Assembly: GCF_000007225.1 (NCBI RefSeq)
Contig: NC_003364.1
Coordinates: 1,050,001-1,082,000 of the forward strand
Length of the DNA: 32,000 bases
Source of the DNA: Pyrobaculum aerophilum str. IM2
GTDB taxonomy: Archaea > Thermoproteota > Thermoprotei > Thermoproteales > Thermoproteaceae
Direction: 5' to 3'
Shown here: piece after piece, positions 1,114-28,205 of the stretch
How the letters are laid out: every line of letters starts with the position of its first letter
Position numbering within the stretch: the first letter of the stretch is position 1
Notes under the pieces: model-generated
Database searches by the model: none
Told to the model about the DNA's origin: nothing
What the model saw: only the letters and a program-made list of their open reading frames with translations
Program-made: the position numbers and the translations under genes

Positions 1114-1574
1114 CTTTTAGGCAGGCACCAAAGGCCCCTCTCCTTCTGGACGAAACCCCGCTTTCGAAGCATTACGCTGTTTAAGTTCTTTCCATAGTAT
1201 TTTCTAATCTCGGCAAATGTCAAGCAGCCGTCTGGCCTTTTGTTGGCCTCTCTAATAACAGCCTCCCAGCCGCCGCCAACTTCGGCGCTGGCAATTTGTA
1301 TATGGCGCAAGGCCTCTTTCACGGCCTTTTCTACCGAGTGCGCCACGCGCCTCTCCAAGTCTCCCACGTTGCGCGACAAAGCCTCCTCTACTATTTTGCC
1401 AACCCGCTCCTCTAAATTAAGCGATGCCATTACCTCCTCTACAATTTCCCTAATCCGTAGTTTACACGGCTGTTCTAAGAGTTTTATTATCACCTCGTCA
1501 AAGGGGGCGTCTGGCCTCGGGAGCAACCTCCTGAGCCGCTCTACCAGTGAGGGGTCGCGTATTTCTATGTGCAT
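1110..1574 (-). CDS. hypothetical protein, possibly DNA-binding
   Basis: ATG at 1574 lies about 25 nt downstream of TATA-like ctttatatag (minus strand, 1594-1603). The N-terminus HIEIRDPSLVERLRRL looks ribbon-helix-helix-like. The C-terminus LTFAEIRKYYGKNLNSVMLRKRGFV looks winged-helix-like. No firm family assignment. Confidence 0.5.
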   Translation of the reverse strand: MHIEIRDPSLVERLRRLLPRPDAPFDEVIIKLLEQPCKLRIREIVEEVMASLNLEERVGKIVEEALSRNVGDLERRVAHSVEKAVKEALRHIQIASAEVGGGWEAVIREANKRPDGCLTFAEIRKYYGKNLNSVMLRKRGFVQKERGLWCLPKS

Positions 1575-1626
1575 CGGCAAGAAGTATATAAAACTATATA
1601 AAGATTACGAGTGTAAAGAAGAGGGG

Positions 1627-2472
1627 TTACCCTTTTGTTTCTCCTGCCATTTTTTTCGCTAACGTGTAAATAACCGGTACTAACAACAATGCGGCGGCAA
1701 TGGCGATGCCCCATGCCACGTTTTGAATCACGTGTGCGGCTTGTGGGAAGTTGGCAAATATTGCACCTAGGCCTACCATTAAGAATATCAGATAAACTAA
1801 GAATTTGGCATACGGCGCAGCGCTGGCGAATTCTGGGTGATCTTCTATGATGTTCCTAACTACTGTGTGTCCTATGAATATGCCTGCACCTATAATCACA
1901 GTGCCGAGAATAAGCGGGTACACGAGAGGCCCGGTGAACAACATTAAGTCAAGCGCAATGGACACTATCAATGCGATGAGGCCGATGAGCAAGAGGTTGC
2001 GCAACATTTCGCCTATTTCAACGAACTGTTTGGGAAAGAGACCTGTCAGGAGTTTACCAATGTAGTCGGTTAAAAGCGCTACTAATATGAGACCAGCTGT
2101 GAGTAGTATTATACCGCCAATAAGTCTCGGCAGATACTCAGCAACTTGCGCTACCAATACGCCGGCCTCTCCCCCTATCCTCAGGTAACCTAATGCAACA
2201 ACAATACCTATAACTACAACAAATGCCGTAATTAGCATTCCAATTAGATTAGACAGATCTATTCCAGCTGCTCTAAAGGCCTTGCCCACGTCCGTCCTAT
2301 CAAACGCCTTCTCTAACCCAGTCCTCTCAATTAGCCTATTTACAGCCCTGCCTATCACCGAGCCTATTGCCCAAGCCACAAGAATTATTATTATTGCGAT
2401 AATGCCCTGTATGCCGTAGGCAATAATGTCGCGCAACAATTGCCCCCAATCTATTCCAAATTGTAGCAACAT
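1627..2472 (-). CDS. polytopic integral membrane protein, unknown function
   Basis: Multiple long hydrophobic segments. ATG at 2472 is about 25 nt downstream of TATA-like aatatttaaaaata (minus strand, 2491-2504). The track ORF begins at an upstream TTG (2487). Confidence 0.7.
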   Translation of the reverse strand: MLLQFGIDWGQLLRDIIAYGIQGIIAIIIILVAWAIGSVIGRAVNRLIERTGLEKAFDRTDVGKAFRAAGIDLSNLIGMLITAFVVVIGIVVALGYLRIGGEAGVLVAQVAEYLPRLIGGIILLTAGLILVALLTDYIGKLLTGLFPKQFVEIGEMLRNLLLIGLIALIVSIALDLMLFTGPLVYPLILGTVIIGAGIFIGHTVVRNIIEDHPEFASAAPYAKFLVYLIFLMVGLGAIFANFPQAAHVIQNVAWGIAIAAALLLVPVIYTLAKKMAGETKG

Positions 2473-2910
2473 AACCGTGCTCCACAATGGTATTTTTAAA
2501 TATTACGCAATTTAACTGGCCATATTAACAGTGTTAATGTCGAAAAATCGGTGTGTACAAGCCACTGTGTTAGCTTGCCCGAGCTAACACTGCGAAATTT
2601 AAATCGGCGAATGTCTTGTAGAACTGAGGGACGGATTAAGCTAACTAAAACTCTCCGACAATCGAAAATATCTAAAAATTATATAAATAGAATAGTTCTT
2701 TCTAATTCGATTAATAAAAATATGTTTAAATAAGTTGTATGAGAATTCTATTACAGAGTTTTGAACGTCTTATTAATGTTTTATAGATATATGTCTTAAT
2801 TGGTGTAAAAGGCGGCGTAGGGATAGAGCTGTCGCCCGCTCCGCTCTTGACGGTCAGTCCTCCGGCCGGCAGACGCCTTAATTTTTATTTACCTCTAGAG
2901 TATAATACTT

Positions 2911-4245
2911 GTGGAGTCAAAATTTATTGACAGAGAGGCTGAATTGCAGTGGCTAGAGGAGGCTTATAACTCCGCCTCGGCGCAGTTGCTCGTTTTATAC
3001 GGCAGGAGGAGGATAGGGAAGACGGCGTTGGCAGTGCGGTTTCTCAAGGGGAAGAGGGGGATTTACCATATGTGTACTTACGACTCCGTTGAGAAAAACG
3101 TGAAGGAGCTCTTGGGAAAGCTGGCAGATCTAACAGGGCTGGAATATCTCCGCCACTTAGAGCCGAGATTTGACGTATTTTTAGACGTCCTCGCCCGGGT
3201 CTCTGCGGGGGAGAGAGTGGCATTGGTGCTCGACGAGTTTCAATACCTCGTGGAGCTAGATCCCTCAATCCCCTCGGTATTGCAAAGAGCTTGGGATCTC
3301 TCTCTGTCTAAAACGAAAGTCTTTCTGCTCTTAGTGGGGTCAAGCGTGGGGATGATTGAGGAGAGGATTTTATCGCGCAAATCGCCCTTATACGGCAGGC
3401 GCACTGGGAGTTGGAAAATGGGCGAGTTGCCCCCAGGGAGGATACACGAACTACTCCCCGGCTGGGATCCCGTTGATGTGTTTAAGGCGTGGGCCGTAGT
3501 CGGAGGCGTGCCGTATTACCTATCTCTGTTTGACGCAAATAAGAGCCTTGAGGAGAATTTGTTGCGGCTTTTTAAAAAGGGAGGTCCCCTATACGAAGAG
3601 CCGGTGTTTTTATTAAGAGAGGAGTTGAGAGAGCCCCGTGTGTATGTGTCCATACTTGAGGCCATTGCCAGCGGGAGACATGCCTTGGGCGAAATAGCAG
3701 ACTGGGCCGGGCTGGATAGGAGCAAGGCGTCTAAGTATCTCTGGGTCCTCCAGCACCTGGAGATTGTGCGCCGAGAAGTCCCCGTGGGTAAGAAGAGGGG
3801 GCTATATTACATCTGGGACAACCTCTTCCGGTTTTGGTTCCGCTTTGTCTACCCAAACCTCTCCGCGTTAGAACAGGGGGATGTAAGGCCTTTGCAAGAC
3901 GGAGAAGCCCTCTCTCAATACTTCGGCGAGATGTTTGAAGAATTTATAAGGCGCCATTCGCCGTCTATATTCGGCGTGAGGCTGGGCAAGCTCATAAAAG
4001 GCGGCGTCGATATCGACTTGGCGGGGGAGATCCGCGGCTGTAGAATATACGGAGAGGTGAAATGGTCTGGGGATGTTGACGCAGAGGCCGTGGTGAGAGA
4101 TCTCATTAGAAAGGCGGAGGGAGACGTCTATATAGTAATTGCCAGGGGGTTTAAGAGGAGGACTGCCAACTCCTACACGCTTGAGGAAATTCTAGACGTC
4201 TTAAGGAGGGGCGGCAGGATAAGGCTTTGCGATGAGAAGACTTAA
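2911..4245 (+). CDS. archaeal AAA+ ATPase (Arch_ATPase / DUF234-type)
   Basis: Walker A GRRRIGKT and Walker B-like ALVLDEFQ. The C-terminal region has the winged-helix-like and DUF234-like layout typical of this abundant archaeal family. GTG start is 25 nt downstream of tttttattt. Confidence 0.8.
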   Translation: MESKFIDREAELQWLEEAYNSASAQLLVLYGRRRIGKTALAVRFLKGKRGIYHMCTYDSVEKNVKELLGKLADLTGLEYLRHLEPRFDVFLDVLARVSAGERVALVLDEFQYLVELDPSIPSVLQRAWDLSLSKTKVFLLLVGSSVGMIEERILSRKSPLYGRRTGSWKMGELPPGRIHELLPGWDPVDVFKAWAVVGGVPYYLSLFDANKSLEENLLRLFKKGGPLYEEPVFLLREELREPRVYVSILEAIASGRHALGEIADWAGLDRSKASKYLWVLQHLEIVRREVPVGKKRGLYYIWDNLFRFWFRFVYPNLSALEQGDVRPLQDGEALSQYFGEMFEEFIRRHSPSIFGVRLGKLIKGGVDIDLAGEIRGCRIYGEVKWSGDVDAEAVVRDLIRKAEGDVYIVIARGFKRRTANSYTLEEILDVLRRGGRIRLCDEKT

Positions 4246-17809: not shown

Positions 17810-18403
17810 ATGTCTACGTGTATTTCGGAGAGATTTTCTATATGTAGCCCGGAGGTGGATAGAGGCGAGGTTTTAAAAAAGGCGTTGGAAATCGAAGAGC
17901 TGTTTTCCGCATCTCCCTACGATGTAATAGGAGTGGCAGTTGCCTTCGGCGCAGATCCCGTGGAGGCCAAGAGGAAGTTGGGGGTGGAGATATCGGGATA
18001 CGTCAGAAAGCCGATATCTACATTTCTAGCCCGATACGGCAAAGCCCACGGCTACGAGAGAGTGGAGAGGGAGTTGGTAAAGCTCTACCAGGCCCAGAAA
18101 GGCTCTTGCATCTGCCCGGTGGGCCCAATAGCGCCGCTTGAAAAAGGCTATATAGTGCAACGGCCCTACGGAATTTATATATGCGACGGCGGGGGGTGCA
18201 GAGAGGTGGCGCCGGAGCCTCTGACTGTTTACGAACACCCCACAGGCTGTATGTTCTACAACCCGCCGCTGGTGCTCGCCGACCAGCCCATTGCCGCTGT
18301 GGCCAACGCCTTAAAGCAGTTAAAAGTCGCAGAGCCTGACCTCGTGGCCAAATACCTCCTCCCCGGCCTGTGCAGAGAGCTGTGGGGGGTGTACATTCCC
18401 TAG
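17810..18403 (+). CDS. hypothetical Cys-rich protein (197 aa)
   Basis: ORF with a well-spaced TATA (17776-17788). It carries CICP...CDGGGC...C clusters. No family recognised. Confidence 0.55.
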   Translation: MSTCISERFSICSPEVDRGEVLKKALEIEELFSASPYDVIGVAVAFGADPVEAKRKLGVEISGYVRKPISTFLARYGKAHGYERVERELVKLYQAQKGSCICPVGPIAPLEKGYIVQRPYGIYICDGGGCREVAPEPLTVYEHPTGCMFYNPPLVLADQPIAAVANALKQLKVAEPDLVAKYLLPGLCRELWGVYIP

Positions 18404-18563: not shown

Positions 18564-20129
18564 ATGCCGGTTTCTAAACTTCGAAGGATTACAACAAGGC
18601 GGACTCTGGCACTTGTATTAATAACGGCTGTAGCCCTAACAACGTATATTGTTGCGACAAACCTCCCCAGCCCAGACGTTACTATTAAGTTCGAGATTTA
18701 TGAAGATGGGAAGAGGATCACGGACATATTTACGAGGAGTGACGTGACTGCCGCCGTTTTCATCAGGGCCATCACGCCGGACGGAGAAGTGCCAGTATTC
18801 GTCGGCCAGACAAGGGGCGCCGTCCACGTGCCAGCCGCAAAGCTGGGCCCAATCGCCAAAAACTGGACTGATATACAGAGGGGGAGGGGCAACGACCCCG
18901 AGAGGTTCTTCACAGCCCTAATCGTGAGCGTGGCGGTTGTTAACAAGACGAGCGGAAAGCTTATTCTATACGCCACGTACTTCGTTGATTACCCGCCTGC
19001 AAAAATCGCGAGGGGAGATACTGAGGTAATCTACACGTTACACATAGCCAAAAAGCGGAGTGAGACTAGGGGCTATGTAGTTAAGGTCGATAGAGAGGAG
19101 AAGGGGAGCCCGCTGCTGGGGTACGGCTTCGCCGCGCTCAGCCCGCCTTACACAGAGCCGCCAAAAGACGTGTGGTGTGAAGTAGTGAGCCCAGAAATTC
19201 CGAGCTACATCTGTTGGTACAGGAAGGCCTGGATCGGCGTGGAAAACCTCACGGCCGTATTCCCCAGCTCCTACTTCGCCGTGTATAACGGCAAGACGTA
19301 TATGAAAGTGCCGGTGATAATGGCCGTAAACAACTTTACCGCGAGCGGCAGCATTGAGATCACAATAAGTATGCTTCAAACAGCTGCGAAATTCTCTGTC
19401 AGTGCCGTTTTGGCTGTGCCAGCCGATAAAGGTCCTTCTATAAGCCTAGCTGGTCGTAGTTGGGGCGGAGAGCTGTATTACATGGGCAACTCTATTTTTC
19501 TCGGCCCCACTAGATCTGGCTGGATTTGGATCTACGGAAGGCCCGTCTTTGCGTCATACGACGTATATTACGAGGCGCCGGGATGGAGGGAGTACTGGGG
19601 AGAAGAGAACTACTTCTACATAGCGGATATTTACGTAAGTAATATGATTATAATTAGCGACAAGGACTTCGTCTTGCCCGCTGAAATAATCAACTTCTTC
19701 TACGAGGGCGTCACTAAACAAGGCCCCCTAACTATTTCCGGAACGGCGCTGGACGACGGCAAGCTGGACCCGGGGGAGTACCTTTATTTTAGCCAGCTGT
19801 TCTCTTACTACGACAAGTGCGGCGCCGATTTTGAAGTCGGAATTCCAGTCGGCGCGATAATAGTAGCCGCTTTGACGAAAAATGTACAGCTAACTCTTGC
19901 AACTGCCGCTATCAAGGCCTTAGAAGTATCCCTATCTGTAGAGGGCGCAAATGTATACATAAATGGTAATATATACAATTACGGCGATCATCCAGACGTG
20001 CCTAACGATATGAACATCGCAGAGTATATTGTCGTCGCCGTTGGGAGGTATAATTACACGGCTAAGGACTTCTGGGGCAATACTTGTACCTACGACGTGC
20101 CCGCCGGTCTGTATATTGAAAGTCGCTAA
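18564..20129 (+). CDS. large N-terminally anchored secreted protein, unknown family (521 aa)
   Basis: N-terminal anchor LALVLITAVALTTYIVA. Tyr/Val/Ile-rich beta-type composition with N-x-S/T sequons. TATA-like box at 18540-18549. Confidence 0.7.
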   Translation: MPVSKLRRITTRRTLALVLITAVALTTYIVATNLPSPDVTIKFEIYEDGKRITDIFTRSDVTAAVFIRAITPDGEVPVFVGQTRGAVHVPAAKLGPIAKNWTDIQRGRGNDPERFFTALIVSVAVVNKTSGKLILYATYFVDYPPAKIARGDTEVIYTLHIAKKRSETRGYVVKVDREEKGSPLLGYGFAALSPPYTEPPKDVWCEVVSPEIPSYICWYRKAWIGVENLTAVFPSSYFAVYNGKTYMKVPVIMAVNNFTASGSIEITISMLQTAAKFSVSAVLAVPADKGPSISLAGRSWGGELYYMGNSIFLGPTRSGWIWIYGRPVFASYDVYYEAPGWREYWGEENYFYIADIYVSNMIIISDKDFVLPAEIINFFYEGVTKQGPLTISGTALDDGKLDPGEYLYFSQLFSYYDKCGADFEVGIPVGAIIVAALTKNVQLTLATAAIKALEVSLSVEGANVYINGNIYNYGDHPDVPNDMNIAEYIVVAVGRYNYTAKDFWGNTCTYDVPAGLYIESR

Positions 20130-20264: not shown

Positions 20265-21164
20265 ATGAAAATCGGCATAGTTAGGCCGTACGAGGTCGAG
20301 TTCAACCTCGGGGATGTTGCCGACTTAGAAGAGGCGATTAAAAAACGTGGCCACATCCCCATTAGGATATACGTGGACATGTTAGAGGTCAGGATTGGGG
20401 GCGGGGGAGTTGCAGTGAGGCAGGCGGTTGGCAGAGGCCAGCCTGAGGAGGTGGACGTGCCCGGGGCAATTCTGCGCCACCTGGGCATATTCCGCGACTT
20501 TGAGCAGTTCCTCTACAGAGTGTGGGCGGCGAGGGCCTTAGAGGAGTCCGGCGCCTACGTCATGAACCCAGTGTTGCCGTGGGTTGTCGCCGGCGATAAA
20601 ATGGCCGCGCTTATGAAGCTGGCAAAGGCCGGCCTCCCGGTGCCGCCGACAGTAGTGACGGAGAACATGTTTGTGGGGTACAGAGCAGTCGCCGAGTTCG
20701 GCAGGGCTGTGGTTAAACAAATGAGAGGCGCCATGGGCTACGGCGTTTTTTTAGTGGATAACCCAGACGTGGCTTTTCACATTTTTTCGGCGCTTGTCAA
20801 TTTGAACAAGCCCATATACGTCCAGAAATTCCTCGAAAAGGGAAGCGGCGACTACCGCGTGGTGGTTGTGGGAGGCCGCGTAATAGGCGCGGAGTACAGA
20901 AGGGGGGAGGGGTGGAAGACGAACGTGGCCCAGGGGGCTAAGCCCGAGCCCGCCAGAGCAACCCCCCAAATGGAAGAGCTGGCGGTAAGGGCCGTGGAGG
21001 CGCTCGGCTTAGACTACGGCGGAGTCGACATCGCCGAGACGAGCGACGGGTATTACATACTTGAGGTAAACCCCACTATGAGCTGGCAGGGCTTTAAACA
21101 AGCAACGGGGATAAACCCGGCTGAGCACATCGTGGACTACCTTCTAGAGAAAATAAAGAAATGA
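20265..21164 (+). CDS. RimK-family ATP-grasp ligase
   Basis: 299 aa with an ATP-grasp pattern (VVKQMRGAMGYGVFLV, PIYVQKFLE, DYRVVVVGGRVIGA, GGVDIAETSDGYYILEVNPTMSW). Confidence 0.85.
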   Translation: MKIGIVRPYEVEFNLGDVADLEEAIKKRGHIPIRIYVDMLEVRIGGGGVAVRQAVGRGQPEEVDVPGAILRHLGIFRDFEQFLYRVWAARALEESGAYVMNPVLPWVVAGDKMAALMKLAKAGLPVPPTVVTENMFVGYRAVAEFGRAVVKQMRGAMGYGVFLVDNPDVAFHIFSALVNLNKPIYVQKFLEKGSGDYRVVVVGGRVIGAEYRRGEGWKTNVAQGAKPEPARATPQMEELAVRAVEALGLDYGGVDIAETSDGYYILEVNPTMSWQGFKQATGINPAEHIVDYLLEKIKK

Positions 21165-21251
21165 CGGCAGATTTCAAACCATTACAGCAATAGGCAAATT
21201 ACTTTTCATTTTTTGGCTAACGCAAAAAAAAGACCGGAATTACATGACGCC

Positions 21252-22682
21252 ATGGACAAAAGGCTAGTTTTGGGATTGATGGCGCTTCTGTTGGCAACTG
21301 CGCTGATATACGCGGCTACTCCATACAAAAACCCGTATCAGTACTCTGAGGAGCACCAGACGCTTTGGGGTAAAATCGCCGCCCTTGCCCACTACGACGT
21401 GATTAAGACTACAGAGCCTAGGCTCTGCTCAAACGGCGCGGCTAACTACACGTGCTTTTTAAGCAAAACGGATATTGCCCCTATCCTAAAGGCGTTAAAC
21501 AAGACGGGAGTGAAGCCGGAGGTTGCTGAGATAGAGGCGAAGTGGGTCCTTGTCCTAGACATAGACTACACAGCAGTGCTGGCAACTGGCAACTCTTCCC
21601 CGTATTGGCGCAATTACACAGTAATAAAGGCGTGGGAGCTTACGTGGAACAACCAGACTGCGAGAGTTTATCAAGTAAGGCTGAGGTGGTCATACGGCGA
21701 GTTGATAAAGGCAAAGGATCTGGTCGTTGAAAAATTATTGTATAAAGACAAGGTCAAGGGGATCACCTCTGTAGCGCCAGCCCTAGAGAGGATAGTAGTC
21801 ACTACTAAAAACGCCACCTCTGACCGCAAGCCAGATCCCAATGCAACCGAGACAATAAAGAAAAAGATAAAAGAGATTGATTCAGATCTTGAGGTGGAGG
21901 TTGCTTACGCCGAAGAGGCGAGACCAACGCTGAGTAGAGGTAGTGTTTTTAACCCACTTGTAGGAGGCATAAATATAACACTTATTTATAGATATACTCC
22001 TAACTATTTGAATATCTCTGGTTGCACATTGGGCTTTACTGGCATGCTGTATGGCTCAATCCCCGTCATAGTGACGGCGTGGCATTGTAGTTTTTGGATA
22101 TGGGGGAGTTCTGTAAGAGTTTACCAGCCCACGCACTTCGACTACTACATAGGCAATCAATACCAGCCAGCTGGATGTACATACAGGCAAATTGACGCCT
22201 ATACCATTGAGACGTATTGCGATATTATGACAATACCGGTAGATACTAGCAGACGCACCACTGCTCCACAGATCTTCAGACCTTACGACGTGGACTGGGG
22301 GACTGTGACGAAGGTGTTGGGGAGATACGACGTGCCTTGGCTTGGTACATTAACTAAGGCTGGGAGAACAACCGACATAGCACAAGGACTTCTGTGGAAT
22401 TATTGTACAGATACTATATATTATCAAAGAGCGAGATATGATGAAAATCTAATCATTATACATCAAATAACTGTTAAATGTACAGTTGATGTAGCTTGGA
22501 TGAAAAATTGGAAAGGCGATAGTGGTGGCCCTGTCTACGTAGTAGGCCCGTTAATAGGGCTAAATTCGAGAGAGATATACGCATATGGAATTACCTCTGG
22601 CGTTTATTTCGGCTTGGTTGGAGAGCCGCACACTATAGTATCGCCCCTCGATGCCTATCCTTTATATGTCAAATATACTTAG
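21252..22682 (+). CDS. membrane-anchored trypsin-fold (S1-like) serine protease with a long N-terminal region of unknown function
   Basis: His motif VTAWHC (His codon 22083-22085). Asp candidate in DAYTIETYCDIMTI. Ser motif GDSGGP (22518-22532). N-terminal anchor LVLGLMALLLATALIYA. ATG at 21252 fits the TATA-like gcaaaaaaaag. The track ORF starts at TTG 21213. Confidence 0.8.
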   Translation: MDKRLVLGLMALLLATALIYAATPYKNPYQYSEEHQTLWGKIAALAHYDVIKTTEPRLCSNGAANYTCFLSKTDIAPILKALNKTGVKPEVAEIEAKWVLVLDIDYTAVLATGNSSPYWRNYTVIKAWELTWNNQTARVYQVRLRWSYGELIKAKDLVVEKLLYKDKVKGITSVAPALERIVVTTKNATSDRKPDPNATETIKKKIKEIDSDLEVEVAYAEEARPTLSRGSVFNPLVGGINITLIYRYTPNYLNISGCTLGFTGMLYGSIPVIVTAWHCSFWIWGSSVRVYQPTHFDYYIGNQYQPAGCTYRQIDAYTIETYCDIMTIPVDTSRRTTAPQIFRPYDVDWGTVTKVLGRYDVPWLGTLTKAGRTTDIAQGLLWNYCTDTIYYQRARYDENLIIIHQITVKCTVDVAWMKNWKGDSGGPVYVVGPLIGLNSREIYAYGITSGVYFGLVGEPHTIVSPLDAYPLYVKYT

Positions 22683-23472
22683 AATTACTGTCAAAATTAT
22701 CTTTTTTTCATTACTTTTTATTCTCTTTATTATTACACTTCTTCTTACATTTGCTAATGTAGTGTGTATTGCTGGCTGGGAGCCTCCCAACCCGCCTCGG
22801 TGTCAGCTGGTTGGTAGAGTGGCGGAGGCGCTATTCCCTCTGCCCTACTCTGCAATACTCAAAGCCTCTGAATTTGTATGTAATCTTTTAAATGCCGCGG
22901 GATATGCCGCTTCTCCGCCCAAGTGTGCGCCGGCTGGAAGCGTCGTGGAGACTTACGCCACTGGTACCGTCTACGGTCCGTGCGACTACAAGGGGAGCCT
23001 CCAAGTGTCGAGCTGCATAGTGAAGGGAGTTGAGGGAAGCGCCTGCGTGGCCAGCGACGGCAGATACGCGGTGTTTCTAGCATCGGTGCCCGAGCCGTCC
23101 GAGCCGCGCGGAAGTGGCGCAAGCACGCTGGCGATAAGACTTCAGCCAATTATAGTCGTTGTCGACTTGCGCACGGGCGATGCGGCGTTGCTCCACTTCT
23201 GGTTTCACGTTAACAACACGGCCCAGTTTGTAAACTACTCGCAACCTCCCCCGTGGTATGACCCAGCTACGTTACCAGCTACGTTAAGCCGCTTCGTCGT
23301 CTTTGGGGAAGACGGCGTATATTTAAGAAACGCCACGGAGCCATTCGCTCTGGTTATAATCCGTGACTTCTACGCGGCCAGAGTTAGCGTTGACAAGTCT
23401 GCGCTGACAGTCTCTGGGCCGGTGGAGCGCGCCAGCGGCGTGTTTATAAAAGTGCCCATCCGCGGCGGATAG
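22651..23472 (+). CDS. Cys-rich secreted partner protein (273 aa), paralog of 23733-24884
   Basis: Overlaps the protease 3' end. N-terminal helix IIFFSLLFILFIITLLLTF. Shares VYGPC, CVASDGRYA, VVDLxTG, VVFGxDGVYLR and FxKVPI with the minus-strand paralog. Confidence 0.65.
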   Translation: MPILYMSNILRITVKIIFFSLLFILFIITLLLTFANVVCIAGWEPPNPPRCQLVGRVAEALFPLPYSAILKASEFVCNLLNAAGYAASPPKCAPAGSVVETYATGTVYGPCDYKGSLQVSSCIVKGVEGSACVASDGRYAVFLASVPEPSEPRGSGASTLAIRLQPIIVVVDLRTGDAALLHFWFHVNNTAQFVNYSQPPPWYDPATLPATLSRFVVFGEDGVYLRNATEPFALVIIRDFYAARVSVDKSALTVSGPVERASGVFIKVPIRGG

Positions 23473-23732
23473 GGCCAAACGCCTGAACCAGACAGCGACG
23501 GCGCTTTGTATTAGCCACATACTGAACAGTCGGCTTGGCTGAAATAACACACATCATTCAGCCGCTAAGGCGTAATTCTCGGCGCAGGACACATCGGGCG
23601 GATTGAAAGTTGCCGCCAGAGGCGTGGCGCTGGGGCGAGAGAGGTAGGGCGCCGGAGCCCAGGAGGTCAACACAGCCTACGAGGTACTGCTGGCTTTGCG
23701 CAGTCCTTCCCCCGGCGCGCCGTCTAGACGTA

Positions 23733-24884
23733 CTACTCCCTCCTGGGTATTGGAACCTTGACGAAAGTGCCGTTGACGGCCTCCACCGGCTGGCCTATTC
23801 TCAGCCTGGAGGGATCCAGCTCTACGCGCAGGGTGAAGACGCTCTTTATCATTGCCTCTATCCTGCCGAGGTCCGCCTTCCAGTCGCTGGGCGCCTCCCT
23901 GAGGTACACCCCATCTCTGCCGAATACTACATGGCGTCGAATCTCTTCGACATAGAGGAGCGCGATATCTGGATGCGGCGAAAGAGGGTCTGGAAGCTCT
24001 GGAAAAGCTAATTGTACGGCTGTCGACTATCCTGTGTTTAAGTCCACGACAAGTAGGTAATAGTGGGGAGGGATCAAGACCGCGGGGCAAACCACAGGCT
24101 CACACGGAGGCGTGTGGGCCGGGCAGGCGGACTTTTCAACGCGCGCCAAAGACGCCGCGTACCTCCCGTCGCTGGCCACACAACTGAGGGGCTCTATTCT
24201 AATCACTTCGCCAGTCCTACACGTCGGCTTGCTGTATTCAAAAGACCCGTCGTATTGGCAAGGCCCGTAGACATAGCCGGAGGCGTTGGACGCCTCTCCT
24301 GCGGGGCACGGCGGTGGCGGTTTGTAGTTAAGCCCTGCGGCTAAGCAGATAGGCGCCGTAAACGGCCCCCAACGGGGATCAAAGGCAAGGGATATAAGCT
24401 GTGTAAGGCCTATCGTAATAATATGTAAAAAATCCTTTTCATTTGTAGCCAACGTCCCGCCAAACGAGTCTGGCGACGTCCGTCTGATTATATAAACAGC
24501 TGGGACGGCTATGGCGGCGATTTCAAGCGTCACGAAATCCCACGCAATTCTATAGTCAATGAGCTCTAAGGGCCCGCTTTTTACGAAATCAATTATAGAG
24601 CCATTTAGACACGTCCCCAGCTCCTTTATGCTCGTCTCCGTAAGCCTCTTTAAAAACTCCGTCTCGTTGGGCGGGGCTATTAATATCATCGCCACTCCCC
24701 TCCCAGGGCTGATCCCAACGGAAAAGTCCCTGGGCGTTACAGACACGCCGCTCTCGTTATAAGGCCGCCAGACTAGTTTGCCAAGCGCAGAAATCCTCCT
24801 GTCTATTTCATCGCCCTCCGCCCCCACAAGGTAATGAGATGGCGGCGGGGCCTCGCTTATATCTATCATAACTAACAGCGGCAA
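23733..24884 (-). pseudogene. paralog of the Cys-rich partner protein, interrupted by one in-frame TAG (24027-24029)
   Basis: The 285-aa ORF ends ...YYLLVVDLNTG-TAG. The same frame continues for 95 more codons (STAVQLAF...VVFGRDGVYLREAPSDW...NGTFVKVPIPRRE) to a TAG at 23733-23735. That extension aligns with the C-terminal third of the 273-aa paralog. Confidence 0.65.
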
Positions 24885-24888
24885 ATCT

Positions 24889-25476
24889 CTATAATTTCTT
24901 AAACACTTCCCTCAGCCGATCCTTTACTTTAGCCAAAGCGCTCATGTCTTTGCCAGGTGGTTGCGAGATATCTATATTAACTGTTCTCCTCCACGCACTG
25001 ACGAATATAACATTTACCTTAATGCCGGCAGTAGCCAGCGAGGCTTTAACGTCCTCTATTAGGGCAGAGGTCCTATTCGCCCACTTACTTGCTCTGGAGA
25101 GTCTCTCTGCTGTTGTCCTATTAGCCACGGCGCCGCAACAATAGTAGTAATCCGCGGTGCCAGTGTAATTCGCCGCCTCTAATTCCGCCTCTATCTCACG
25201 CCACACTTTTTTAAACTCCTCGCGCCATTTCTCTGGAAACTCATACCACAATTTGATTTTTTCTTGAGCCTCTTTATTTGCCTTTTTTACCTCGGGGTCG
25301 TAATGGCGAATAACGTAATATACACAGTTGTCCACTTTAATCTCAACTGCGGGCCTTTGGAAGACTGAGTAAACAACAGTCATGTTGCCGAAATTGTGCA
25401 CCTCGCCGTGATAAGTCCACGCCGCAAATACAACAGCGGCGAGGAGTACTAGGAAGAGTAGTGACTCACTCGCCAT
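24889..25476 (-). CDS. N-terminally anchored hypothetical protein (about 195 aa)
   Basis: ATG at 25476 gives MASESLLFLVLLAAVVFAAW. The central region is Lys/Glu-rich and helical. It lies between the protease remnant and the partner paralog. The track ORF starts 11 codons earlier. Confidence 0.55.
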   Translation of the reverse strand: MASESLLFLVLLAAVVFAAWTYHGEVHNFGNMTVVYSVFQRPAVEIKVDNCVYYVIRHYDPEVKKANKEAQEKIKLWYEFPEKWREEFKKVWREIEAELEAANYTGTADYYYCCGAVANRTTAERLSRASKWANRTSALIEDVKASLATAGIKVNVIFVSAWRRTVNIDISQPPGKDMSALAKVKDRLREVFKKL

Positions 25477-26085
25477 ATCTATGCACAACGCCGTAGAATT
25501 TATTAACACACTCTACAGCCCTAAACTCTATGAACGGCGGATTATCCGCAGGCCTTAACGATGTGAAAATTCCTGTAATCGTAACAAGCACGTACGGTGT
25601 TCTCGGTATTGGAGACACTTTGAGGAGAGGCGATCCGCTATCCCCTTGTTGAGTCGGCTTCCATTCAGGGTCGTAGTATATAACTAACAGACAGTACGGC
25701 CTACCGTCAGGCGCAGTGGGTTCGTAGTAATAAATCCGGGCTTTTCCTCCCTTATATCCAGTTAAGTGGCCAATTCGATACATATTGTAGATGACTTGCC
25801 CCTCATACGACTTTAGCGTGCTGTCGCTGAAGTAGGTCATGGAGACTTGTGGGTATCCGCTGTATCCGCACAACTCTATAGGCGGCGATGCCATTGTGGA
25901 TCTTTTTTCAATTTTAACAACAGCCGCGTCGACAAGATTGTCGTTTTTATCCCACAGCTTGCCAATGTAGTTTTGGGCGTTCCTCCGAAAGGAGAACCGC
26001 AATAATAGCAATGTTGGTATATACTATCGCCGTCGTCAAAGCCATGGGACACTGTTATATACGCCGGTTGCGATCCAAGCCATAC
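25466..26085 (-). pseudogene. S1-like serine protease paralog, 5'-truncated and frameshifted
   Basis: Two overlapping minus-strand frames. The upstream frame has GSQPAYITVSHGF (compare GSIPVIVTAWHC). The downstream frame has NYIGKL...DAAVVKI...GDSGSPLL (compare YYIGNQ...DAYTIE...GDSGGP). The shift is near 25990-26010. Homology stops at the inverted repeat edge (26086). Confidence 0.75.
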
Positions 26086-26288
26086 GGCGGGGTGGGGGGT
26101 GGCAATACCTTCATGACTCTCCCTTGCACATCCCCCAATTTTGAATTTTTCTCCAGCGTCTGACACCGGTCGGGCGGTGCCCCCTGGCGCCCCGCTCCCA
26201 GGTGTTGAGCAAGATTTCGTTCAACATCGCGCCTTTCAACTCCCGAGTGTTGAACTGAGTACGGGTTTCAGCTCTCCGATTTTGAACC
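26086..26288. repeat. left inverted repeat of the tnpB element
   Basis: Its reverse complement aligns with 27663-27861. Examples: ctgaaacccgtactcagttcaacactcgggagttgaaaggcgcgatgttgaacg versus ctgaaatccgtactcagttcaacactcgggagttgaaaggcgcaatgttgaacg, and also caccgcccgaccggtgtcaga. Confidence 0.9.
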
Positions 26289-26482
26289 TGGCTCTGTTCA
26301 GCGACACGGCTCCCGGCCCCCGGGCGCTGAACTGTCCCCTTTCCTGAGTTCACTCCTGAGTTGACGTCTTTTCAGCGGACACCTCCTGAATTTTTCAGGA
26401 AGTGGGCGCCGAAACTACGCTAACTCAGGAGGGATTTCAGGACGGCAGGAGGATTCAAATTTGCGGGTGCGCAGGACGGGGC

Positions 26483-27628
26483 ATGAGGGTACACAGAACC
26501 CTGGTAGTACGGAGAAAGATTGAGGAAATTCCGCCAGAGAAGTTAGTTAAGTTCCTCGAGGTGCAACAGAAGTTCAGGGAGTGGGCTACCCAGTGGTACA
26601 AGTCGGGATTCAAGGTGCCAGCACCAGAGGAGAGTCCGCTGAAGTACTTCGCAGTGGAACTAAAGTACGGTATGAGACTGATCCCCACCAACGGTCTCAA
26701 AAACGGCGTCTGGAGGGTACCTTTACCGTTTGACGCACAGCTCCGCGAAAATAACGAAAGGGATCAGAGTCGCGGTGTCTTAGTCGATTTGTCAAGAGGG
26801 GACATCAGAATTAGAAAATGGGGCGGGGGCACGATTGAAATACGGCTTAGAAAATCAGAAATCAAGTGGATAACTCAGAGACTGAGGGAGGGGGCGTGGC
26901 TGAAACTAGCCTACGCGTGGATCGGCCACACCAGGCAGACAAACTTAGTCGCCTTCAATCTGGCACTCGTCTTTGCTAGAGAGACAGAACAGTATCATCC
27001 AATTCGTATCATGGCGATTGATCTCAACGCCCTTCATAACGGCGTCTCCTGGGGCGTTGTAGACGGCGAGAGGGTAATAAGGCGCGATACCGAGAGACCA
27101 GATTTAGTCCGCGTCGGGAAGTTGCAAAAGGAGATATCCCGCCTAGACTCTCTCTGCGCGGAGAGGGGAGGAGACTACTGCGAAAAGGCGAGAGAGGCGA
27201 AGAGCCGCCTCTGGCGATTGTTGCGACGGTTTGAAGACGAGGCGGCCAAGAGACTAGTTGAGCTGGCCATAAAGCAGAAGGCCGCAATAGTGGTAGACGC
27301 GCCAGAGGACGAGTCCGTGAGGGAACTAATGGAAGGGAATTATACGCCAAACAGAAAGATATACCTAAACATAGGGAGACTGAGGAGGAGGATAAGAGAG
27401 CTGGCGGAGTGGTACGGAGCGCCTTACCTTGAGGAGAGATTGTACAGCACTGTCTGTCCCCGTTGCGGGGGCAAAATGAGAGAGCTGTCAAACAGAAAAG
27501 TCAAATGCCTGTGCGGTTTCGAGGCGCAGAGAGATCTAGTGCCCATCCTCTGGGCCCAGAGGCGGTTCTCCGAATTAGTCCAACCCTCCTCTTTTTCGCC
27601 CAATCTGTTGCCAGCGCCCGTTCTGTAG
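26483..27628 (+). CDS. tnpB: TnpB (IS200/IS605 OrfB, RuvC-like RNA-guided nuclease family)
   Basis: RuvC-I IMAIDLN. Glu candidate in AAIVVDAPEDESVRE. Zn ribbon CPRCGGKM...CLCG followed by the RuvC-III-like QRDLVP. ATG at 26483 (MRVHRTLVV) is preferred over the track start at 26402. Confidence 0.9.
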   Translation: MRVHRTLVVRRKIEEIPPEKLVKFLEVQQKFREWATQWYKSGFKVPAPEESPLKYFAVELKYGMRLIPTNGLKNGVWRVPLPFDAQLRENNERDQSRGVLVDLSRGDIRIRKWGGGTIEIRLRKSEIKWITQRLREGAWLKLAYAWIGHTRQTNLVAFNLALVFARETEQYHPIRIMAIDLNALHNGVSWGVVDGERVIRRDTERPDLVRVGKLQKEISRLDSLCAERGGDYCEKAREAKSRLWRLLRRFEDEAAKRLVELAIKQKAAIVVDAPEDESVRELMEGNYTPNRKIYLNIGRLRRRIRELAEWYGAPYLEERLYSTVCPRCGGKMRELSNRKVKCLCGFEAQRDLVPILWAQRRFSELVQPSSFSPNLLPAPVL

Positions 27629-27662
27629 TCGCCACAGACAAATGGTCTCCCCCCTTACGTCT

Positions 27663-27861
27663 GGTTCAACGTTCAAGAGCTGAAATCCGTACTCAGTTCA
27701 ACACTCGGGAGTTGAAAGGCGCAATGTTGAACGAAGTCCCGTTCAACACCTGAGGACAGGGCGCCACCGCCCGACCGGTGTCAGATACTGGGAAGAGAGA
27801 AATCAAAATTGGGAGATGTGCAGGAAAGAGTCATGAGGGAGCCACTGCCCCCCACCCCGCC
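27663..27861. repeat. right inverted repeat of the tnpB element
   Basis: See the left repeat. It starts 35 nt after the tnpB stop, where a TnpB guide (omega/reRNA) scaffold would be expected. Confidence 0.9.
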
Positions 27862-28010
27862 CCGGGCAGGGCGGGGCGGCCCTGGCGCGCGGGCCGAAGG
27901 CGGGGAGAGCCCGCCGAGGGGGTTGCCGACGCCCCGGGCGCGGCCCGCCCCGGAAGCCTCTGGCGATCCGGGGCCCCGTGTCCCCCGGGGCGCCCGGGGG
28001 GATAGGGGAC
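27862..28010. other. extremely GC-rich tract (about 85% G+C by my count), non-coding
   Basis: G- and C-runs with local palindromes (gggcagggcggggcgg, cccccggggcgcccgggggg). ORFs on both strands give Pro/Gly/Arg junk. Confidence 0.7.
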
Positions 28011-28205
28011 ATAGCCCAGCGTGGCTACAATATCACAGGGGGAAGATCAAGAACCAGCACGTAGATGGCTTTGCTATTTCAACGCATGGGAAGAGCGGAT
28101 CTTGGTATTTGGACAAATCGTCTAAAGCCATCGCCGGCGCCGCAATTATTACTAGTGCTATCTTTGTGGACATGAATTCCAGAGATTTTTTAAAAATACT
28201 CCCGT

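Follow-up and report, generated by a model that had tools for sequence, protein, structure and literature searches.

Folding of proteases of the S1E subfamily is subject to a kinetic trap and requires assistance, as is established for alpha-lytic protease. Other proteases are encoded together with a dedicated antagonist: in the staphopain-staphostatin and streptopain-Spi operons, the protease gene is followed by the gene for a small, dedicated, beta-rich inhibitor. Mechanisms of antagonism and self-protection in Crenarchaeota are almost unknown. The nearest experimental work, in the genus Pyrobaculum, concerns a chymotrypsin-like protease of P. neutrophilum, PnCHT: the expressed enzyme hydrolyzes Suc-AAPF-pNA, and Pnserpin inhibits it at 80-100 °C (PMC5297747). 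Here we analyze a stretch of 32,000 nucleotides (nt) from Pyrobaculum aerophilum str. IM2 (contig NC_003364.1, positions 1,050,001 to 1,082,000 of the forward strand), referred to as the window, whose numbering is used for all positions in it. On the plus strand of the window, the gene for a serine protease (protease 1) is directly followed by the gene for a Cys-containing partner protein (partner 1), and a second, decaying unit on the minus strand converges on this pair. The locus is a compact system that brings together a divergent hyperthermophilic S1E-like protease, an uncharacterized putative display domain common to serpins, and a partner family. An initial annotation of the window had described trypsin-fold proteases as uncommon in Crenarchaeota, which has to be qualified for Pyrobaculum, where S1 enzymes were already known, both from PnCHT and from the automatic UniProt name of protease 1, 'Peptidase S1 domain-containing protein'.

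Protease 1 is a divergent S1E-like serine protease

Protease 1 (AAL63753.1, 476 residues) is encoded on the plus strand at 21252-22682, downstream of a gene for a RimK-like ATP-grasp protein (20265-21164, plus strand), in an open reading frame (ORF) that spans 21213-22682 and has its annotated start at 21252. It consists of a signal or anchor helix, an alpha/beta N-domain (~21267-21944) recognized from the family alignment, a structural model, and fusions elsewhere, and an S1E-like domain (21948-22679) containing H278, D324, and S424. The plus-strand cassette of the initial annotation is real and intact, with TAWHC at residues 275-279, Asp324 in the sequence CDIM, GDSGGP at residues 422-427, and an overlapping partner ORF.

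In an alignment of nine family members, comprising protease 1 and eight database relatives that all come from Pyrobaculum, H278 (TAWHC), D324 (CDI), and S424 (GDSGGP) are invariant and occur in the order His-Asp-Ser. The motifs P-[LV]-V-G-G, C-T-L-G, and A-G-x-x-T-D are invariant as well, as is the R-x3-F-x-P-[LV]-V-G-G junction between the N-domain and the catalytic domain, where autoprocessing of the alpha-lytic type is possible. Alignment of the protease-domain profile with streptogrisin B (SGPB) by hhalign gave a probability of 95.7% (E 9e-9). A profile search of PDB sequences returned SGPB alone, aligned at CTLGF..TAWHC and GDSGSP with a non-significant E of 0.22. The top five Foldseek matches of the AlphaFold2 (AF2) model are all S1E proteases (2sfa, 3sgb, 2pfe, 2lpr, and 5mrr; E 2.5e-6 to 4.6e-4), with target-normalized TM-scores of 0.46-0.62 for a query domain in which the predicted local distance difference test score (pLDDT) is only 30-55. 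Weak matches to Pfam Trypsin_2 and Trypsin were found in five of the nine members (best E 5e-4 and 2.7e-3), all below the gathering score, and an NCBIfam scan of the family gave no match. The invariant triad and the SGPB profile match support the earlier assignment to the chymotrypsin-fold (S1) enzymes, and we conclude that protease 1 is a very divergent S1E-like serine protease of the streptogrisin/alpha-lytic type.

The partner gene is strictly linked to the protease gene

Partner 1 (268 residues from the annotated ATG) is encoded at 22666-23472 on the plus strand. Starting there or at an alternative ATG at 22651, its ORF overlaps the end of the protease 1 gene, including the stop codon, by 17-32 nt. 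The protein has a long N-terminal hydrophobic helix that forms its putative transmembrane (TM) helix, two more helices, and a beta-rich ectodomain of ~170 residues. The family conserves C87, C106, and C127 and the motifs GxVYGPCxY, CVAxDGR, VVVDxxxG, and VVFGxDGVYL. An N-terminal hydrophobic helix is present in every partner, and the partners are predicted to be membrane-anchored and extracytoplasmic. The family comprises about 11 protein clusters, all from Pyrobaculum.

Local hidden Markov models (HMMs) were run on 98 genomic and metagenome loci, designated here by L numbers; the genomic set is not a full census, with a pattern-limited contig scan recovering P. oguniense only. In all 22 metagenome loci where the protease-1-type domain is complete and sequence beyond it is available, a partner gene follows, starting 18-102 nt past the protease match; it also lies directly downstream in 8/8 genomic loci with a full protease of the protease-1 clade. 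These counts bear out the conserved two-gene unit that had been proposed from the window. The linkage persists down to ~30% identity of the protease domain, and the genomic settings of the pair include three that are unrelated to one another: the RimK locus, a HerA/AAA island of Pyrobaculum sp. 3827-6, and a locus running from THUMP to S11. The protease and partner genes of L006 overlap by 4 nt, and protease and partner are probably translationally coupled. In hot-spring metagenomes, a frequent third cassette gene encodes a polytopic membrane protein of 150-180 residues with the motif PPLLSLLLLRRP (loci include L023-L027, L029-L033, L039-L050, and L062; e.g. L043 4826-5374), which is positioned after the partner in many cassettes. 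This third component has no Pfam family, and the window, P. aerophilum, and the genomic loci L001-L018 all lack it.

None of the cassette proteins matched a family at curated thresholds when scanned against Pfam, NCBIfam, PADLOC, and PHROGs. A literature search on the locus tags and on archaeal S1E proteases found nothing specific, in agreement with the view in the initial annotation that no such system has been described. A viral or plasmid origin of the cassette was sought by tblastn against phages and plasmids and by an IMG/VR scan, all of which were negative. In Pyrobaculum sp. 3827-6, the pair is located inside a block with DUF87/HerA, AAA, Rad51-like ATPase, and helix-turn-helix genes (L003 1-13407) that may be an integrated element.

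Protease C-termini switch together with partners, and partners outlast proteases

At the RimK locus elsewhere, the cassette forms a tandem array in which a full protease and its partner are followed by 5'-truncated protease fragments, each with an intact partner (L001, L002, and L012). The protease genes of IM2 and L009 do not differ in their first 1,080 nt (100% identity); beyond that point, identity per 90 nt drops to 72-88%, and the last ~116 protease residues switch jointly with the partner among strains. The C-terminus of the L009 protease is a 100% match to an orphan C-terminal fragment of L001, and the partners behind both are 100% identical. A conserved 48-nt junction flanks the cassettes. 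At the family level, no sharp boundary between conserved and variable parts was found inside the protease, where the gradient is gradual. Mean pairwise identity is 0.59 for the N-domain, 0.50 for the protease domain, and 0.43 for the partner, the fastest-evolving module of the unit; of 105 pairs, 91% show higher identity in the N-domain than in the protease domain.

The protease has been removed and an intact partner ORF kept in at least five independent events. An in-frame deletion in L010 joins the protease signal sequence to partner 1, L083-L088 combine N-domain and partner ectodomain in a fusion that keeps the partner ORF intact, and L057 carries a precise deletion of the protease domain alone. 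A short protease remnant stands upstream of partner P0020 in L015 (P. aerophilum), and the protease upstream of P186_2545 in L017 (P. ferrireducens) has lost the regions around His and Asp and reads GDNGSP in place of GDSGSP. In L013 (P. oguniense), the partner is an orphan with no protease remnant within 6 kb. No full protease without a partner was seen in the protease-1 clade. The initial annotation had named partners found mostly without the protease as evidence against a two-component unit. Orphan partners are common, but most retain a visible remnant of a deleted protease, and this asymmetry is informative and does not refute the pairing.

The N-domain is shared with serpins and with partner ectodomains

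The N-terminal region of about 250 residues that had been left unassigned contains a discrete, conserved module that also occurs fused to serpins and to the partner ectodomain. Residues ~30-230 of protease 1 (about 200 residues) form a separately folding alpha/beta module (AF2 pLDDT 70-94). Four N-x-S/T sequons are invariant in the family alignment of this N-domain, which is probably N-glycosylated. It gave no Pfam match even at E <= 10 and no PDB sequence match, and Foldseek aligns it weakly, to ribosomal uS3. Its position and the F-x-P-[LV]-V-G-G junction were alone in suggesting an alpha-lytic-type pro-region (PF02983) upstream of the catalytic domain; we found no support for one in sequence or fold and rejected this assignment.

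Serpins of 520-594 residues in Pyrobaculum (P0009-P0011; L004 3605-5380) carry the N-domain, at 53-55% identity, attached through a Pro-rich linker. At the one informative serpin locus, there is no partner gene downstream. In six metagenome contigs (L083-L088; e.g. L084 1295-2566), the N-domain is joined in frame to the partner ectodomain in single ORFs of ~420 residues, with the protease domain and the TM helix of the partner deleted. The presence of the N-domain on serpins as well as proteases suggests one display domain common to protease and protease inhibitor, and we infer that its role is display or anchoring at the cell surface. Ahead of the serpin gene that carries the N-domain in L004, a pair of paralogous genes (1262-3234) encodes a 'GEWVL.G.DGLYLAKR' stretch that resembles the VVFGxDGVYL motif of the partners; neither matched the partner HMM at E <= 1e-3.

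The partner is a candidate inhibitor of its cognate protease

Several features lead us to read the pair as a protease with a cognate protective inhibitor or immunity partner, similar to a polymorphic toxin system: the two genes are strictly linked and probably coupled in translation, the C-terminal barrel of the protease switches together with the partner, the partner evolves fast, loss affects the protease and spares the partner, and the same N-terminal module also carries a serpin, a genuine S1 inhibitor. We hold this reading tentatively, at a little under even chances. In this model, protease 1 would be exported and presented on, or released from, its probably glycosylated N-terminal module at the cell surface, the presumed location of the enzyme. 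The overlapping downstream gene would give rise to a membrane-anchored, beta-rich partner that would bind the cognate protease directly, probably at the active-site region and C-terminal barrel of the enzyme. The partner would thereby serve as its dedicated inhibitor or immunity factor and shield the producer's own envelope. The unit would diversify by duplication and by recombination inside the protease gene, which would swap modules made up of the protease C-terminus and the partner. The products would be tandem arrays and orphan copies of both fragments and partners, a pattern known from polymorphic toxin/immunity loci of bacteria. The direct binding, the inhibition, and a role in antagonism are all proposed from the behaviour of the genes. 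A partner family without a known fold behaves like an antidote in genomic terms, with strict linkage, module switching, and retention past loss of the protease, and if the partner is an inhibitor it would establish a new inhibitor class with stability near 100 °C.

Because the Pyrobaculum envelope is essentially protein, an extracellular protease is plausible both as a weapon and as a hazard to its producer. It is possible, though doubtful, that the cassettes constitute an archaeal polymorphic effector/immunity system in which Pyrobaculum strains release S1E proteases from their surface against the S-layers of neighbouring cells, the cognate membrane-anchored partners provide self-protection, module switching and orphan genes reflect an arms race between strains, and the N-domain serves as a general display module for proteases, serpins, and partners.

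Several observations weigh against an inhibitor or immunity partner. Joint inheritance of the protease C-terminus and the partner may be due to plain physical linkage, and the Spearman correlation of divergence is little better for protease and partner (0.71) than for N-domain and protease (0.69). The neighbourhoods contain no secretion or delivery apparatus, the N-terminal signal or anchor helix being the sole such feature, and gave no PADLOC or PHROG family match. The partner model (pLDDT 76) matched no known inhibitor or other fold in Foldseek searches of PDB and BFVD (all E > 0.09), and showed no structural similarity to the serpin, ecotin, SSI, Kazal, or staphostatin/lipocalin-like inhibitor folds. 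AF2 confidence in the protease domain is also low (pLDDT 30-55). The second partner of the window, partner 2, is itself decaying. Finally, a divergent protease clade has no detectable partner and instead encodes the PPLLSLLLLRRP-type membrane protein directly after the protease; this replacement means that the protective or cognate role could lie with the third component.

Alternatively, the partner could be the dedicated substrate or pro-protein of the protease, a surface protein that is processed or released, for example during adhesin or envelope maturation. The strict adjacency, the overlap of the genes, and the predicted extracytoplasmic location of both products fit a substrate too, the partner is variable like many surface proteins, and a substrate could outlast the loss of its protease if it were processed in trans by another protease. 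However, conserved positions in the partner alignment sit in the cores of beta-strands and at the cysteines, with no evident conserved linker or cleavage motif that stands out. The repeated in-frame rescues after protease deletion indicate that the partner is useful without processing in cis, and the co-switching of the protease C-terminus and partner is better explained by binding specificity than by substrate turnover. We consider a substrate role unlikely.

Equally unlikely, in our judgement, is a maturation, folding, or docking factor resembling the lipase-specific foldases, or a surface receptor that retains the released protease. The kinetic trapping of S1E proteases would give such a factor a purpose, the downstream, overlapping gene and the membrane anchor of its product recall lipase-Lif operons, and the R-x3-F-x-P-[LV]-V-G-G junction suggests autoprocessed release, so that a docking partner would be sensible. 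A factor left without its client would be expected to degenerate, but the partner has stayed intact through no fewer than five independent losses of the protease, in-frame rescues among them. The partner is also beta-rich, in contrast to the all-alpha Lif, and is the fastest-evolving module of the unit, neither of which favours a foldase. If the partner is not the inhibitor that we propose, its strict coupling to the protease nonetheless marks out a new surface-protease module of two or three components.

The minus-strand unit is composite and decaying

On the minus strand, genes are transcribed in the order protease 2, PAE1825, and partner 2, towards the plus-strand pair. The 5' portion of protease 2 (28010-28173, minus strand) comprises the ATG, a signal or anchor helix, a short linker, and the start of the domain, PCDIVATLGY, and contains a C5-run frameshift at 28033-28047. 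Its 3' portion, in the PAE1826 region (25466-26087, minus strand), contains SHG, DAAV, and GDSGSP and a frameshift at 25967-25983. Between the two, inserted in protease 2, lies the 1,922-bp insertion sequence (IS) element 'paREP12' (26088-28009), which carries a TnpB-like gene (26402-27628, plus strand); its precise excision restores the protease 2 frame (...TLGYAVWLGSQPAYITVSHGF...). Near 24890, a frameshift in a run of A divides the PAE1825-type gene (24420-25476, minus strand), leaving PAE1825 (24892-25476) on one side and the opening ~150 codons of the ORF at 24027-24884 on the other. In all, the protease 2/PAE1825-type unit is broken in four ways. Partner 2 (23733-24419, minus strand) is fused in frame to the preceding gene and contains an in-frame TAG at 24027-24029; its N-terminal part is annotated as 'conserved within P. 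aerophilum part 1, authentic frameshift'. The decay of one copy that had been noted initially is thereby confirmed and is more extensive, involving the IS, three frameshifts, the TAG, and a 5' end at 28010-28173 that lies beyond the region first described.

The initial annotation proposed duplication of a single protease and partner unit followed by loss of one copy through redundancy, a scheme that we now regard as improbable, even more so than a substrate or a foldase. The partners are true paralogs, as had been claimed: partner 2 matches partner 1 by BLASTP (E 9e-13) and by tblastn (E 3e-22 over 214 residues, reading across the TAG). The S1 triad motifs are also found in both proteases, those of protease 2 (ITVSHGF, DAAVVKI, and GDSGSP) being spread over two frames, and hhalign aligns the two enzymes weakly (77%, E 2e-5, 131 columns) with His, Asp, and Ser in register; the heavy damage to the minus-strand copy likewise agrees with this scheme. 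However, BLASTP of protease 2 against protease 1 gave E 0.003 over 22 residues, and tblastn gave no match between protease 2 and any protease-1-type copy. An exhaustive HMMER search with protease 2 returned three relatives and one marginal match only. Protease 2 also has a short architecture of signal or anchor helix, linker, and catalytic domain, without the N-domain. We therefore rejected it as a close paralog of protease 1, since BLAST-level similarity is absent and the homology is distant and seen at profile level only. The protease described earlier on the minus strand does possess the triad motifs, but belongs to a distant, short-form S1 lineage and is not a recent paralog.

The neighbours of protease 2 also do not fit two simple paralogous cassettes. 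In P. ferrireducens, a protease-2-type gene lies upstream of, and overlaps, the gene for a 342-residue protein with TM segments at its N- and C-terminus, and no partner-family gene is nearby. This protein corresponds to PAE1825 plus the first ~135 residues of the 285-residue 'partner' ORF. The anchored ORF of 195 residues in the initial annotation is therefore real, as PAE1825, but its P. ferrireducens counterpart is fused with the first ~135 residues that had been assigned to the partner paralog, and the conserved neighbour of protease 2 is a PAE1825-type protein. Partner 2, meanwhile, is nearest to 'partner C' (56% identity), which follows a protease-1-type C-terminal fragment in other strains. 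The distance of protease 2 and its own PAE1825-type neighbour indicate that the minus-strand unit is composite, and it appears to juxtapose two different cassettes.

The TAG at 24027-24029 and the resulting split into 285 and 58 residues are common to several P. aerophilum-like strains and metagenome-assembled genomes (L009-L011), and this lesion is thus either old or strain-wide. Each of the three frameshifts of the decaying cassette falls within or beside a short homopolymer run (C5, A4, and A3); homopolymer instability is reported for P. aerophilum, and frameshifts at such runs fit it. The paREP12 element has imperfect inverted terminal repeats of ~200 nt (26086-26288 and 27663-27861) and a GC-rich palindrome at 27948-27999, and the product of its TnpB-like gene has a Cas12f1-like TNB domain. 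A 49-nt inverted repeat at 26342-26442 (78% complementary, 3-nt spacer) spans the start of this gene. Upstream of the RimK-like gene, two conserved genes whose function is not known and that have no Pfam family (17810-18403, 197 residues; 18564-20129, 521 residues) retain their synteny in every strain examined, with the 521-residue gene shortened or split in some strains (clusters of 446 residues and of 301 and 215 residues).

A hypervariable island of secreted-protein genes without functional coupling, in which adjacency reflects shared ancestry and low recombination, is very improbable as an account of the pair: all members come from one genus-level group, so that phylogenetic inertia inflates the co-occurrence counts, but the pair turns up in three or more unrelated genomic settings, is kept down to ~30% protease-domain identity with overlapping genes, and shows in-frame rescue of the partner after protease deletions.

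Comparison with described systems

Among operons that encode a protease and its inhibitor, staphostatin and Spi share with partner 1 a small, beta-rich protein encoded after its protease. They differ in being cytoplasmic and in targeting cysteine proteases, whereas the partner has a TM helix, is predicted to be extracytoplasmic, and has no significant structural match to a lipocalin-like or other inhibitor fold. The lipase-specific foldases match the partner in anchor and gene order, with the difference that the partner ectodomain is predicted to be beta-rich and not all-alpha.

Polymorphic toxin/immunity loci, such as the cdiA-CT/cdiI genes of contact-dependent inhibition (CDI) and the Rhs loci (Zhang et al. 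2012, PMC3482391), resemble the protease 1 cassette in having a conserved N-terminal part, a more variable C-terminal part, and a small cognate gene directly downstream. They also share arrays of 5'-truncated orphan C-terminal fragments with their own downstream genes, mosaics among strains that arise by recombination within the main gene, and retention of orphan downstream genes. The candidate effector here is an S1 protease, and the word 'trypsin' is absent from 300,000 characters of the survey text in PMC3482391. The Pyrobaculum cassette further differs from these loci in having no recognized delivery system or pre-toxin domain, a gradual boundary between conserved and variable parts, and a crenarchaeal host.

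The serpins aeropin and Pnserpin and the protease PnCHT come from the same genus as protease 1, whose N-domain shares 53-55% identity with the module at the N-terminus of some Pyrobaculum serpins. Compared by description, PnCHT (ACB40794.1) is given as a 36-kDa protein, and PMC5297747 describes no partner gene or N-domain for it. The best matches in sequence and structure are the S1E proteases SGPB, alpha-lytic protease, Thermobifida TFPA, and Lysobacter L1. Protease 1 shares with them the His-Asp-Ser order, C-x-LGF...TA-x-HC, GDSGxP, an AG-x-TTD / G-S-TTG-like motif, and a catalytic domain that opens with [LV]-V-G-G and is preceded by an N-terminal region. In contrast to these enzymes, the protease 1 family is archaeal and so divergent that it falls below Pfam and NCBIfam thresholds. 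Its N-domain is larger and more conserved than the alpha-lytic pro-region, is probably glycosylated, and is shared with serpins, and protease 1 is always accompanied by a downstream partner that is predicted to be anchored in the membrane.

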